Shown here: piece by piece, positions 10,203-63,863 of the stretch
How positions within the stretch are numbered: position 1 is the stretch's first letter
Layout: each line of letters begins with the position of its first letter
From: Nitrospinota bacterium
Lineage (GTDB): Bacteria; 2-12-FULL-45-22; JACOWJ01
Direction of reading: 5' to 3'
Assembly (NCBI GenBank): GCA_016176845.1
Contig: JACOWJ010000025.1
Location: 5,364 to 69,363 of the forward strand
DNA length: 64,000 bases
The notes under the pieces: generated by a model
What the model saw: only the letters and a program-made list of their open reading frames with translations
Database searches by the model: none
What the model was told of the DNA's origin: nothing
Program-made: the position numbers and the translations under genes

Positions 10203-10323
10203 CAAGCTAAGTTTTAAGTTTTAGGTGTTAAGTTTTAGGTTCCTTGCTTAACACTTAAAACCTGAAACTTAACACTTTCCCGTAAATCCTGTCTAAAAAG
10301 GAAACTCCTATGCCTTCGAGTTA
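10203..10323 (+). repeat. Heptamer-hairpin cassette, TTTTAGG type, with conserved tail
   Basis: Near-identical to 42324-42436 and 63645-63765; terminal TTA is the E2 stop codon. Confidence 0.85.
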
Positions 10324-11538
10324 TCCCTCCAGGAGCAGCAGGTCGGGCTCCTCGAGGTACTCTCGGACTCTGCCCAGGAACAAGACGGCCTCCCGGCCAT
10401 CGATGGCCCGATGATCGAAGGAGAGACACAGGTACATGAGAGGGCGCACGACCAGCTCTCCCTTCCGGACTACCGGCCTTTCCACCACCTTATGGACTCC
10501 CAGAATGGCCACGTTGGGCTGGTTAATGATCGGCGTGGAGAGGAGGGCGCCAAAGACCCCAGCGTTGGTGATACTGAAGGTGCTCCCCACGACCTCGTCC
10601 GGGGTTAGCTTCCGTTCCCGAGCGCGGAGGGCCAGGCCTTCCAGCTCCCGGGATAGCTCCACGATCCCTTTCTTATCGGCCCTTTTGATGACCGGTACGA
10701 TCAGCCCCTCTTCCACCGCCACGGCCACTCCAATATGGTAATATCGCTTGAGAACGATCTCTTCGCCTTCGATCGAACTGTTGGCGGCAGGATACTCCTT
10801 CAGGGCATTCACGGCGGCCCGAATGATAAAGGGCAGGTAAGTGAGATGGGTGCCATACCGCTCCTCCACCAGAGGCCGATATCGTTCTATCAGTCCCTGT
10901 ACCGCGCTCATATCGGCCTCGTCTACCGTGGTCACGTGGGGGGAAACGCGCTTGCTCATCACCATATGCTCCGCAATGCGCCTGCGCATGGGGCTGAGTG
11001 GGACCCTTTCTTCCAGCCCTTCCGCGACGGCTGGGGGGCGTTTCCCCGGTGCAGGGCGTTCCTTCTCCAGGTATTCCAGGACGTCCTTTTCGGTAATCCG
11101 GCCACCGGCCCTTTCTCGGGTGATCTCCCGGAGGTCTACCCCGCGCTCTTTGGCCAGCCTTCTGGCCGCCGGGGAGGCCTTGATCTCCTCGATCTCCCTC
11201 CCTGCAGGGGCCCTCTCGACCCTCTCCGGCGCCTTCTTTTCGATCTCCTCTCTTTCGAGGGCCGCCAGCCTCTCCATCTCTTCTTGAGAGATCTCCTCCC
11301 CTTCTAACGCGATGATGCCCAACTTCTGCCCGATCTGGACCTTTTCCCCCTCTAGCACGATGATCTTTGCCAGCGTCCCCCCCTTAAAGGCCGTGACCTC
11401 CACGCTGATCTTCTCCGTCTCCAACTCCGCCACCGGCTCATCCCGCTCGACCCTCTCGCCTTCCTTTTTCAGCCACTTCGTTACCGTAGCCTCCACCACG
11501 CTTTCCCCCAGCGGGGGAACCACAACCACAACCGGCAT
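10321..11538 (-). CDS. 2-oxoacid dehydrogenase E2, dihydrolipoamide acyltransferase
   Basis: Lipoyl domain ELETEKISVEV, E3-binding ASPAARRLA, catalytic DHRAIDG. Confidence 0.93.
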   Translation of the reverse strand: MPVVVVVPPLGESVVEATVTKWLKKEGERVERDEPVAELETEKISVEVTAFKGGTLAKIIVLEGEKVQIGQKLGIIALEGEEISQEEMERLAALEREEIEKKAPERVERAPAGREIEEIKASPAARRLAKERGVDLREITRERAGGRITEKDVLEYLEKERPAPGKRPPAVAEGLEERVPLSPMRRRIAEHMVMSKRVSPHVTTVDEADMSAVQGLIERYRPLVEERYGTHLTYLPFIIRAAVNALKEYPAANSSIEGEEIVLKRYYHIGVAVAVEEGLIVPVIKRADKKGIVELSRELEGLALRARERKLTPDEVVGSTFSITNAGVFGALLSTPIINQPNVAILGVHKVVERPVVRKGELVVRPLMYLCLSFDHRAIDGREAVLFLGRVREYLEEPDLLLLEG

Positions 11539-11622
11539 AGGGATTCTCCTTGATCTCTTGGCTAGTTTGTGATGATTTTGCGGCCTTGGGGGAAGGTGAT
11601 TCTCGATCGTGCCCTCTGGCCC

Positions 11623-12600
11623 TCACGCCTCGCAGGTCTCCCTGACCCCCTGCACGATCTTTTCGGTGCTGGGCAGGTAGTAGTTCTCCATGGTAGGAGC
11701 AAAAGGGAAAGGGGTATCCAGGCCAGCGATCCTCTTCACCGGGGCATCCAATTTCCAGAAGAGCTCCTCGGCCAACATGGCTGCGATCTCTCCCCCGATC
11801 CCCCCCATTTTAGGGGCCTCGTGGATCACGACCGCCCTCCGCGTTCGGCCCACGGAGTCAAAGATCGTCTCCTTGTCCATCGGGTAGAGGGTCCGCAGGT
11901 CGATGACCTCCGCCTCGATGCCCTCTTCTGCCAGCTTCAGGGCGGCCTCAAGCGACCGATAGAGCATCAGGCCGAAACTGATGAGGGTGACATCCTTTCC
12001 CTTCCGGGCGATCCTGGCCTTTCTGATGGGCACGATATACTCCTCCTCCGGGACCTCCTCTTTGATCGAGCGGTAAAGCTTCTTATGCTCGAAGTAGAGG
12101 ACAGGGTCTTCACACCGGATGGCCGCCTTCAGCAGTCCCTTGGCGTCGTAAGGAGTTGAGGGGGAGACCACGATCAGCCCGGGGATCTGGAACCAGGCCT
12201 CGACGCTCTGTGAATGGTAGACGCCGCCCCCTACTCCCCCTCCATAAGGACAACGAACGGTCATCGGGACATTCAAGGCCCCATTGTTGCGCCAATGGAG
12301 CTTGGCCGCCTGCTGGACCAGTTGGTCGAAGGCGGGGCTGATGAAATCGGCGAACTGGATCTCTGCCACGGGTCGCAATCCGGACAAGGCCGCTCCCACG
12401 GAAACCCCAATAATCATAGACTCGGCGATCGGGGTATCGATGACCCGCTCCTCCCCAAACTTCTCCAGGAGGCCGTAAGTGGCCTTAAAAACCCCTCCAT
12501 AGATCCCCACGTCTTCTCCCAGGATGATCACCGAAGGGTCCCTCTCCATCTCTTCATGCAGGGCATCGTTAATGGCCTGAATGTAGGTGACCTCTTTCAT
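11623..12600 (-). CDS. 2-oxoacid dehydrogenase E1 beta subunit
   Basis: GEDVG..GGVF, DTPIAE, EIQFADF, IDLRTLYP. Confidence 0.93.
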   Translation of the reverse strand: MKEVTYIQAINDALHEEMERDPSVIILGEDVGIYGGVFKATYGLLEKFGEERVIDTPIAESMIIGVSVGAALSGLRPVAEIQFADFISPAFDQLVQQAAKLHWRNNGALNVPMTVRCPYGGGVGGGVYHSQSVEAWFQIPGLIVVSPSTPYDAKGLLKAAIRCEDPVLYFEHKKLYRSIKEEVPEEEYIVPIRKARIARKGKDVTLISFGLMLYRSLEAALKLAEEGIEAEVIDLRTLYPMDKETIFDSVGRTRRAVVIHEAPKMGGIGGEIAAMLAEELFWKLDAPVKRIAGLDTPFPFAPTMENYYLPSTEKIVQGVRETCEA

Positions 12601-12657
12601 TCCTTTTTCTCGCTTTTAGAAGCAGGGGTTAGGGCCTAGCCGAAAAATTAATCCCTT

Positions 12658-62265: not shown

Positions 62266-63279
62266 ATGCCTCCACCCGACGACCGGTTAATCGGCGCCGA
62301 GCGCATCCTTCAGCTGAGCCGAGGTTACTGGGCCTCCCAGGCCCTCTTCGTCGCGGTTCGCCTGGGTCTCTTCGCACTCTTAGAGCGGGGTCCGCAGGGG
62401 ATCCCAGGGCTGGCTAGACTGCTGGGGACCGATCCCGAGGCCACCCGAAGGCTGGCGAACGCCCTGGTGGGACTGGGGTTGCTTTCCAGAAAAGAGGAGG
62501 GCTATGAGAACAGCTTACTGGCCAGGGAGCTCTTGGTCCCGGGCAAAGAGAACTACCTGGGCCATGCCATCCATCACGACGAGAACCTTTGGCCTTACTG
62601 GGAAAAGCTGGACCAGGCCATCCGGATGGGGAGCCCGGTTGCCTTCAAGGTGATGGAAAAGGGTCCCTACGATTACGGCCATCGTTTAGAAGATTACCTG
62701 CTGGCGATGAGAGATCACGCTTCCCTCCTGGCTCCACAGATCGTCCGGGCCTTCGACCTGACCGGCTGCCGGCGCCTGCTCGACCTGGGGGGGGGGCCTG
62801 GCGTCTATGCCCAGGCCTTCGCCCGACACCATCCGGAGCTGCGGGTGACCCTTTACGATTTGGACGCAGTCATCGAACTGGCAGAGAGATGGATCGAGCC
62901 GGGCCTTCTGGGAAATCGGGTCCACACCTGCCGGGGAAACTTCCTGGAAGGAGATTGGCCTCCGGCCGACGCGATCTTCTTTTCCCAGGTGATCCACATC
63001 TATGATGCCCCTATCGTAAGGCAGCTGATCGAGAAGGCCCACGATACCCTGGCCCCGGAAGGCAGGATCGCCATCCATGACTACCTCCTCCAGGCGGATG
63101 GCTCCGTCCCCTCTGCAGGATCCCTCTTTGCCCTCAACATGCTCCTGGGGACACCCAAGGGGGCTTGCTACCCGGCAGTCGAGCTGGCTGGATGGCTCTC
63201 TGAGGCCGGATTTGAGGAGATCCGGGAGCTGCCAATCTCCCCTTCTACCTCCCTAATCCTCGGGAAGAAGGGCAGATAG
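62266..63279 (+). CDS. SAM-dependent O-methyltransferase with dimerisation domain
   Basis: N-terminal AVRLGLF dimerisation region, LDLGGGPG, GNFL. Confidence 0.9.
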   Translation: MPPPDDRLIGAERILQLSRGYWASQALFVAVRLGLFALLERGPQGIPGLARLLGTDPEATRRLANALVGLGLLSRKEEGYENSLLARELLVPGKENYLGHAIHHDENLWPYWEKLDQAIRMGSPVAFKVMEKGPYDYGHRLEDYLLAMRDHASLLAPQIVRAFDLTGCRRLLDLGGGPGVYAQAFARHHPELRVTLYDLDAVIELAERWIEPGLLGNRVHTCRGNFLEGDWPPADAIFFSQVIHIYDAPIVRQLIEKAHDTLAPEGRIAIHDYLLQADGSVPSAGSLFALNMLLGTPKGACYPAVELAGWLSEAGFEEIRELPISPSTSLILGKKGR

Positions 63280-63404
63280 GGGCAAGCCCGAATGAACCTC
63301 CCCTATCCGCTAACCCGTAGTTTCGTCCTCCCCTCATCCGACAAGCGGGTACTTCCGAAGAGCCTTGGAAGCATAAATCGATCGTGTGCCTGAAAGATTA
63401 CAGA

Positions 63405-63569
63405 TCAGCTCTTCTTCGAGGTTTGAACCTGTACGTGGCTAATGATCTGTTTGATATCGCCACTATGGCACTCGGGACATTTGTAATTCCTGGCATCATG
63501 CTCCTTTACCGAAAGCTTGAGGGAGACGTTTTTCTTGCACTTTGCGCATTCAAACTCATAGAATGGCAT
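63405..63569 (-). CDS. FmdB family zinc-ribbon protein, 54 aa, not in the ORF track
   Basis: MPFYEFECAKC..CPECHS..SKKS; GGAGG RBS. Confidence 0.88.
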   Translation of the reverse strand: MPFYEFECAKCKKNVSLKLSVKEHDARNYKCPECHSGDIKQIISHVQVQTSKKS

Positions 63570-63644
63570 AACTCATCCCTCCCTTCTCTCTGCCTCCTGC
63601 CCCATCCTTTCCTGGGTGCGGCAGCTTTGCCCATCTTCAGTTTT

Positions 63645-63863
63645 CAAGTTAAGTTTTAAGTTTTAGGTGTTAAGTTTTAGGTTTCTTGCTTAACACTTAA
63701 AACCTGAAACTTAAAACTTTCTCGTAAATCCTGTCTAAAAAGGAAATTCCTATACGATCAAGTTAGGGATTAGGGACTAGGGGCCGGTGAAGAAGAATTT
63801 TGGCTAACACTTAGCCCCTGGCCTCTAGCCCCTCAAAAATGGAAATCCCTATGCATTAAAATA
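63645..63863 (+). repeat. Tandem array of two different heptamer-hairpin cassettes
   Basis: CAAGTTA (63645) - TTTTAGG unit - tail - CAAGTTA (63759) - GGGCTAG unit - tail. Confidence 0.88.

Follow-up and report, generated by a model that had tools for sequence, protein, structure and literature searches.

Intergenic hairpin repeats of a Nitrospinota genome as probable miniature derivatives of an IS91-family insertion sequence

Background

The closest described relatives of the repeats treated here are rolling-circle insertion sequences (IS) of the IS91 family (IS91, IS801, IS1294, and ISCR). These elements insert without target duplication at 5'-CTTG/GTTC sites adjoining their oriIS end, with an invariant T at position 2, and their terIS end consists of a tetranucleotide and a subterminal palindrome (PMC13181058). 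In Pseudomonas syringae, miniature right-end derivatives of IS801 of 229-679 nucleotides (nt) transpose; they are contiguous fragments of the parent produced by premature termination, lack a left-end hairpin, and occur in few copies (Bardaji et al. 2011, PMC3189936). Here we describe small intergenic units, each composed of a heptamer, a hairpin, and a constant tail, in a 64,000-nt stretch of Nitrospinota DNA (the window; contig JACOWJ010000025.1, positions 5,364 to 69,363) from a metagenome-assembled genome (MAG) of 1.53 Mb in 61 contigs (68% complete, 58% G+C). With a probability of roughly 0.87, these units are non-autonomous derivatives, ~40-150 nt long, of an IS91-family rolling-circle insertion sequence with a Y2 transposase of the HUH type.

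The units resemble the IS91 family in their right end, A(A/T)TTCCTAT(A)CG(A)T followed by a CAAG/GAAC-type target, in the absence of a target duplication, in a left end that combines a tetranucleotide with a subterminal palindrome, and in having full-length relatives that encode Zn_Tnp_IS91 and Y2_Tnp domains. They differ in being gene-less and very abundant (~12 per 100 kb), in a palindrome that is long, built of 7-nt repeats and drawn from at least ten unrelated sequences, and in an extra TTA common to the target and the left end. Unlike in IS91, IS1294, and ISCR1, the tnpA gene of the autonomous relatives lies on the opposite strand relative to ori and ter. As in the IS801 derivatives, which the IS91-family transposase moves in trans, the pieces are short and non-coding, keep the ori end, start with a target-like tetranucleotide, and are probably moved in trans; unlike them, they keep only ~22 nt of the parent end, joined to foreign hairpins, and number ~190 copies.

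Two other kinds of repeat invite comparison. Non-autonomous Helitrons are short, non-coding rolling-circle HUH elements with terminal signals, a hairpin near one end, a short specific insertion site, and no target duplication. The likeness to them lies in retaining only end signals with a hairpin near one end; Helitrons differ in their Rep-helicase enzyme, their end sequences, the position of the hairpin near the 3' terminator end, and their eukaryotic hosts. Cyanobacterial short tandemly repeated repetitive (STRR) heptamer repeats, and repetitive extragenic palindromes (REP) with the bacterial interspersed mosaic elements (BIME) that they form, are likewise intergenic, high-copy tandem 7-nt repeats or palindromes. 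We know of no link between these and an IS91-type oriIS box, and the present units are set apart by description, in that their heptamer runs keep the register of the terminal heptamer and, in most cases, are attached to the tail.

Results and discussion

Abundance of the tail in the window and the genome

When up to 3 mismatches are allowed, the window has 10 matches to the tail, AAAAWGGAAATTCCTATRCGAT, against 0.00 expected from 100 shuffles of the window. When degenerate and truncated copies (tails at 15292, 15398, ~24657-24672, 54398, and 56887) recovered by a looser scan and direct reading are counted, the window holds 16-17 units on both strands, in agreement with an initial annotation that had recognized more than a dozen. 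Genome-wide, 186 copies were found at up to 4 mismatches and none in a reversed-sequence control; at ~190 copies, the units make up roughly 1.3% of the assembly. Every tail is preceded by a hairpin. No transposase was found in the 64-kb window, as had been noted initially. A search of the window with Rfam at the gathering threshold matched a tRNA-Sec gene and none of the units, and literature searches with the tail sequence and on cyanobacterial small dispersed repeats returned only chance matches and nothing relevant, respectively.

The tail as an oriIS end

The annotated IS91 copy in E. coli plasmid NZ_CP122939 ends in ...GGGGATTTAAATTCCTATCGAT, followed by CCAG (end core AAATTCCTATCGAT, then CCAG), and begins with CGAG-TA-GGCAGCCTGGCGGCTGC (CGAG-TA-GGCAGCC...GGCTGC). 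An IS1294-like element in NZ_CP072963 ends in ...TTTTTCAATTTCCTATACGT, followed by CAAG (end core ATTTCCTATACGT, then CAAG). Both boundaries were checked independently, by comparing where the IS-side match stops with where the empty-site match starts in thousands of plasmid matches. Because the tail of the present units, GGAAATTCCTATACGAT followed by CAAG, aligns with these two verified right ends, it can be identified as an IS91-family oriIS end adjoining its target tetranucleotide. This match supports the earlier proposal that the units are non-autonomous mobile DNA with the constant tail as the likely enzyme-recognition end.

The tail is not confined to this genome. Exact AAAWGRAAATTCCTATRCNAT occurs in more than 119 contigs of GTDB species representatives among the matches listed, where ~9 are estimated by chance, and these contigs belong to Desulfobacterota, Brocadiales, Omnitrophota, Nitrospinota, Cloacimonadota, Atribacterota, Elusimicrobiota, and other phyla. 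There too, a different hairpin stands before each tail and yAARTTA after it. A canonical terIS hairpin, GCGCCCTTCGGGCGG, precedes 17 of 123 tails from other phyla, often with a second, repeat-built hairpin adjoining the tail; the copies in the MAG do not use it.

Canonical IS91-family copies of a Desulfobacterium chromosome (30) were rejected as the source of the tail. They end in ...AATCCTAAAGG followed by TTA, and the tail therefore belongs to a specific IS91 subfamily.

These ~30 copies in canonical orientation (G042, OY764894.2; L129, L142, L144, L146, and L148) have a right end composed of a hairpin, CGACCCCCAT...ATGGGGGTCG, and then ACACAATCCTAAAGG followed by TTA, so that a TTA past the end recurs in another IS91 clade.

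Full-length partners with a Y2 transposase

When all tail loci were searched by tblastn with the Desulfobacterium IS91-family transposases, only one (L011) matched, and it identified the right subfamily. This locus holds a Y2 transposase gene within an element of ~1.56 kb that runs from GAACTTA-GCGCCCTTCGGGCGGAC to ...AAAATGAAAATTCCTATACTAT, followed by TCAATTA. The partner transposase combines Zn_Tnp_IS91 (PF14319) with Y2_Tnp (PF04986) and is 437 amino acids (aa) long in its intact form. At least nine insertions in at least seven assemblies share the arrangement NAANTTA-GCGCCCTTCGGGCGGAC...tnpA...AAAATGAAAATTCCTATACTAT, followed by NNAR (L151, L159, L152, L178-L185), the left end being NAANTTA plus a GC hairpin (GAACTTA-GCGCCCTTCGGGCGG). 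The same ends bound homologues on a second contig of the L011 MAG and in a Brocadiaceae MAG; copies become similar precisely at GAACTTA and cease to be so immediately past the tail. The initial annotation had proposed an undescribed cassette system; full-length elements that bear a transposase and the exact tail place the units in the IS91 family instead.

Relatives of the 437-aa protein number 3,535 at E <= 1e-10. The best 120 of these all have both domains, and most are on contigs of 1.4-2 kb. The loci of four relatives led to eight places; in all eight, the tail is found 84-150 nt ahead of the tnpA start codon and a GTCCGCC-N4-GGCGCTAA-NTTN end lies past the gene. In L185, one full copy runs straight into another, as ...GCGCTAAGTTC directly followed by ATCGTATAGG..., the same shared-heptamer junction as is seen between mini-elements. 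The full-length elements encode the Y2 HUH transposase only, with no recombinase or integrase gene inside.

In the full-length elements, a Cys-rich ORF (open reading frame) of ~80 aa runs across the 3' end of tnpA in a different frame (L011:3565-3807; L178 and L179:2699-2941; L181-L183:2699-2944; L184:1414-1659); it could represent a second gene or an extension reached by frameshifting.

One other genome represents the order (G001); it contains 53 tails and a decayed copy of the partner tnpA beside one of them (L157). Judging by identical matches, it is evidently the genome of locus L018, Nitrospinae bacterium RIFCSPLOWO2_12_FULL_45_22. The genome of the window itself has only a short Y2 remnant (C24:130-340) and no close homologue of the 437-aa partner; an intact cognate Y2 transposase with the same element ends is seen in other genomes only.

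Flanking heptamers, targets, and tandem arrays

The units of the window, with related hairpins and tail-like boxes, are as follows.

10203-10316, plus strand: TTTTAGG-type mini-element; left heptamer CAAGCTA (10203-10209), tail 10295-10316; target CGAGTTA (10317-10323), whose TTA is the TAA stop of convergent ORF 10321-11538.
15096-15243, plus strand: long GGGGACA-type mini-element, first unit of a tandem triple; CAAGTTA (15096-15102), perfect tail 15222-15243.
15244-15307, plus strand: TAGCTCG-type mini-element; CAAGTTA (15244-15250) is both its left heptamer and the target of the 15096-15243 unit; truncated tail AAAAAGGAAATTCGCT (15292-15307).
15308-15419, plus strand: TAGCTCA-type mini-element; TAAATTA (15308-15314), degenerate tail 15398-15419 (6 mismatches).
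15862-15945, minus strand: tail-less relic with a GGGGCTA/GGGATTA-type hairpin; left heptamer TAAATTA on the minus strand (15939-15945).
23299-23403, plus strand: GGGATTA-type mini-element; CAAGTTA (23299-23305), tail 23382-23403, target CGAGTTA (23404-23410); its left end forms the TAG stop (23304-23306) of ORF 22665-23306.
24697-24804, minus strand: GGGGCTA-type mini-element; tail 24697-24718, left heptamer CAAGTTA, on the plus strand TAACTTG (24798-24804).
24657-24696, minus strand: minimal TAGCTCA-type unit, CAAGTTA plus 17 nt, with truncated tail AAAATGGAAATTCTGC; in tandem after the 24697-24804 unit.
32317-32338, minus strand: tail-like box ATGGCGGAAATTCCTATACGAT (4 mismatches), without obvious hairpin, directly past the stop of ORF 32339-32986.
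40413-40480, strand not assigned: TAGCTCG/GCTATGA palindrome without tail; one-armed remnants at 22610-22639 and 27635-27661.
42319-42429, plus strand: TTTTAGG-type mini-element; degenerate left heptamer CAAGAAA (42319-42325), tail 42408-42429; target TGAATTA (42430-42436), whose TTA is the stop of convergent ORF 42434-44938.
52250-52357, plus strand: GGGATTA-type mini-element; CAAGTTA (52250-52256), tail 52336-52357, target TGAATTA (52358-52364).
54398-54497, minus strand: GGGATTA-type mini-element; tail with a 1-nt deletion (AAAAAAGAAATTCCT-TGCGAT), target TAAATTA (54391-54397).
56812-56908, minus strand: atypical unit; degenerate tail 56887-56908 (5 mismatches), with an AAGTTTT/AAACCTA heptamer hairpin (56812-56880) 3' of the tail.
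61598-61637, minus strand: minimal unit, TAAATTA plus GCTCATAGCAA plus tail, inserted at AAATTTA (61591-61597) in the middle of a tail-less GCAAATT/ATTTTGC heptamer palindrome (61539-61678).
62216-62262, minus strand: minimal unit, TAAATTA plus GCTCATAGCTCATAGCGA plus tail (62216-62237), without full hairpin; target TAAATTA (62209-62215); its left heptamer stops 3 nt ahead of the ATG of ORF 62266-63279.
63645-63758, plus strand: TTTTAGG-type mini-element leading a tandem pair; perfect tail 63737-63758.
63759-63857, plus strand: GGGATTA-type mini-element; CAAGTTA (63759-63765), tail 63836-63857, flank AAAATAA.

The sequence after the tail is narrowly constrained. Counts at its seven positions (n=167) are C or T, 82 and 48; A, 105; A, 153 (92%); G or A, 78 and 54; T, 105; T, 136; and A, 131. 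The commonest target tetranucleotides are CAAG (47), TAAA (19), CGAG (14), AAAT (12), TGAA (10), and GAAC (9). The A at target position 3 corresponds to the invariant T at position 2 of the published IS91 sites, 5'-CTTG/GTTC (PMC13181058).

The four exact 7-bp repeats reported for the window (15096/15244, 24690/24798, 62209/62256, and 63645/63759) are all present, and they count in favour of a model in which the units are cassettes of a tyrosine (integron- or Xer-like) recombinase, the tail being its binding site and CAAGTTA a duplicated 7-bp overlap. That some plasmid-borne IS91-family transposase genes adjoin tyrosine recombinase genes (H1, H4) also points that way. Matched pairs are, however, no commoner than chance: among 82 elements with a confidently placed left heptamer, the left and right 7-mers are identical in 4, against 4.0 +/- 1.7 by permutation, and the 4-mers agree in 14, against 10.7 +/- 2.5. 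The flanking heptamers are thus two draws from a narrow motif, NAANTTA, and the four exact repeats are chance agreements within it rather than duplications or crossover cores. These statistics largely refute the recombinase model, and the tail matches the oriIS of the IS91 family and bounds elements that code only for a Y2 HUH transposase, with no recombinase gene. Nor do the units have the inverted core sites (RYYYAAC...GTTRRRY), matched crossover cores, and integrase of integron attC cassettes; as recognized from the start, their polarity is different, the flanking motifs being direct rather than inverted. We regard a tyrosine recombinase as almost certainly not the agent.

Chance-level agreement of the two flanks is also what insertion without target duplication, as in IS91, predicts. 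Within a hairpin family, the tetranucleotide varies little on the left (1.5-1.75 bits) and much more on the right (3.0-3.3 bits), and because of this the left heptamer is read as an inherited part of the element, its terIS cleavage site, and the right heptamer as the target. In the hairpin family designated E, the left ends are GAAC, GGAC, and GTAC; their complements, GTTC, GTCC, and GTAC, all appear among the insertion-site tetranucleotides tabulated for IS91 (PMC13181058). A second unit follows within 190 nt in 23 of 167 cases, and that such tandem arrays are common fits with each element beginning with a good target.

Two further ideas about target choice were rejected. Targets are not terIS mimics: no hairpin follows the target heptamer, and the 45 nt past solo insertions fold more weakly (-3.2 kcal/mol) than random 45-mers of the genome (-4.6 kcal/mol). 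Guide-type recognition was discarded as well, since no covariation was seen between tail variants and flanking tetranucleotides.

Exchangeable hairpins

The 125 nt upstream of the tails sort into at least ten families, including all the types first named in the window (TTTTAGG, GGGCTAG/GGGATTA, TAGCTCA, and GGGACAG). Copies per family are as follows.

GGGATTA/GGGGCTA: 51 copies.
GATTCCTCGC.../GATTGCTTCGC... (non-heptamer): 29 copies.
TTTTAGG: 28 copies.
Four GGGGACA subtypes: 27 copies.
TAGCTCA: 20 copies.
Poly-C/poly-G (non-heptamer): 7 copies.
Other families: 24 copies.

The three TTTTAGG-type copies at 10203, 42324, and 63645 are indeed similar (85-93% identical), which falls short of the near-identity first claimed for them. 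Stems begin within the left heptamer and stop shortly ahead of the tail, and in the E-type alignment the last base of the heptamer is paired. NAAN-TTA directly joined to the stem thus reproduces the terIS layout of a cleavage tetranucleotide with an adjacent palindrome. In families with heptamer-built stems, the repeats keep the phase of the terminal heptamer and vary in number from copy to copy; position 7 is A in 68-90% of units in four of five families tested and in 50% in TAGCTCA. The E family shows two compensatory base-pair changes between subtypes and a third subtype with the inner hairpin inverted.

These facts support the view that the hairpin module is exchangeable, as first proposed. 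The hairpin is not cargo, as had been supposed, since it holds the position of the terIS subterminal palindrome. Neither of the genes suggested as cargo (TIGR02436 and GxxExxY) is matched anywhere in the genome.

In several TTTTAGG-type copies, the tail stops after 5-8 nt (AAAAAGG and then unrelated sequence; G000 C7:5854, C35:42757, C36:14291, and C37:9499), which suggests deletions starting at the ori end or incomplete copies.

A hairpin beside a short conserved cleavage motif, intergenic location, and the lack of a duplication are also the layout of REP/BIME elements or palindrome-associated transposable elements (PATE), which are served by a Y1 HUH enzyme (a REP-associated tyrosine transposase, RAYT, or IS200/IS605 TnpA) that reads the hairpin and cuts at guide-defined sites. 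The hairpin sequences here are not conserved, whereas Y1 enzymes read theirs, and the conserved part is an IS91-type oriIS that accompanies Y2 genes. The genome has no match to PF01797 (Y1_Tnp), against 6 of 14 control genomes with a match. Lacking both the Y1 transposase and the conserved hairpin of those systems, the units are very unlikely to belong to them.

Proposed mode of transposition

As IS91-family derivatives, the units have the anatomy [NAAN-TTA + hairpin] + [22-nt tail] in the orientation used here. The transposase, probably supplied in trans, would nick at the tail (oriIS) and start replication there, and the displaced strand would be cut off at the terIS-like end formed by the left tetranucleotide and the adjoining palindrome. 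The element may move as a single-stranded circle and would insert immediately 5' of the target heptamer, without duplication; this heptamer, an IS91-type tetranucleotide (CAAG, GAAC, CGAG, and so on) with a TTA extension, lies outside the element. New copies would often land directly upstream of old ones, whose own start is a good target, and hence head-to-tail arrays with one common heptamer and apparent 7-bp direct repeats would arise. If the enzyme reads only the tail, the tetranucleotide, and a stem, then the sequence of the stem is free and could be swapped for resident palindromes; stems may also grow and shrink by slippage of 7-nt units. The mini-elements are a known kind of selfish DNA that is unusually small, modular, and abundant.

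Genomic context and a possible host function

Although 83.5% of the genome lies within ORFs of at least 150 aa, these account for only 13.8% of tail bases, and 151 of 186 tails lie wholly outside such ORFs, a distribution that fits selfish DNA. The intergenic location, with many copies a few nt from stop codons and the target TTA serving as the TAA stop of a convergent gene in 11 copies (including 10321-10323 and 42434-42436), would also be expected if the units worked for the host, either as hairpins that stabilise or terminate transcripts or as a box bound by a protein (the 9-bp palindrome GGAAATTCC), with mobility only their origin. The maintenance of hairpins through the compensatory changes between E subtypes would agree with this. 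Yet no T-run follows the hairpins, and orientation to neighbouring genes is even (92 stops against 88 starts downstream). Tails have decayed about as much as element bodies (mean of 1.5 mismatches per 22 nt, compared with 14% pairwise divergence), there is no Rfam match, and the occurrence of the same 21-nt box with a transposase in many phyla fits recognition by an enzyme better than regulation by the host. A host function is accordingly an improbable explanation.

Several observations weigh against derivation from the IS91 family. No intact Y2 transposase was found in the assembled 68% of the genome. In all tail-bearing full-length elements, the gene order is not terIS - tnpA (sense) - oriIS, tnpA being antisense to its arrangement in IS91, IS801, IS1294, and ISCR1; this inversion is an architectural difference of the subfamily rather than a mechanistic criterion. 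The TTA past the tetranucleotide, kept in 63-82% of targets, has no counterpart in descriptions of IS91. Some 20% of hairpins are not joined to a full tail, and the E2 hairpin (GATTGCTTCGCTTCGCTCGCAATGAC...GTCATTGCGAGGAGCG..AGCGACGAAGCAATC) occurs 48 times genome-wide, 14 times with the tail; ~34 of the E2 hairpins sit in a different repeat, gtgctcagggg-[hairpin]-tctaactggacaccctcttgcgtggagttgtac (for example, G000 C7:17534, C7:33970, C7:37314, and C14:42219), which is a separate repeat family with the same palindrome. The median pairwise identity of the TTTTAGG family is ~86%, and activity of the mini-elements may be old. Finally, no empty site, circle junction, or presence/absence polymorphism was seen in Logan contigs from 5 runs of one study, which are 99.8-100% identical to the window and every one of which ends inside elements, so that the test was a weak one. 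A metagenome scan for empty sites yielded one distant 1.2-kb contig, and the best G001 match to a gene neighbouring an element is only 42% identical, too distant to inform on an empty site.

Implications

Derivation from the IS91 family accounts for a repeat occupying many intergenic spaces in this Nitrospinota MAG. Related same-box repeats are present in Desulfobacterota, anammox Planctomycetota, Omnitrophota, Cloacimonadota, Atribacterota, and other phyla. Such repeats break short-read assemblies and yield spurious small ORFs. Natural variation among the units suggests that an IS91-type transposase needs ~22 nt at ori and a tetranucleotide with any stem at ter, and the recognition of terIS and target by IS91 enzymes becomes testable through this variation. 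The data also suggest that IS91-family elements can spawn swarms like those of miniature inverted-repeat transposable elements, documented so far only as a few IS801 fragments. No new recombination system is involved; what is new is the combination of a minimal oriIS with foreign hairpins, amplified, in a subfamily with inverted tnpA.

A broader proposal, which we think somewhat doubtful, is that these units exemplify a miniature rolling-circle class that spans phyla, is essentially undescribed, and is moved by the abundant IS91 subfamily with inverted tnpA (~3,500 protein clusters). Only ~22 nt of oriIS and NAAN-TTA would then be read as sequence and the terminator purely as a stem, so that palindromes near suitable heptamers (such as E2) could be recruited, and in-register 7-nt arrays would grow by mis-termination or slippage.

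Other features of the window

In a divergent intergenic region at 44837-45132, AATTGAA and ATTTTGC heptamer runs lie ~200 bp apart without an IS91-type tail, bracketed by the GC-rich inverted repeats gcgcgcttcgcgcg and gggctcgcgaagcgagccc. The tRNA-Sec gene matched by Rfam (RF01852, 70.4 bits) is located at 35076-35169 on the minus strand.

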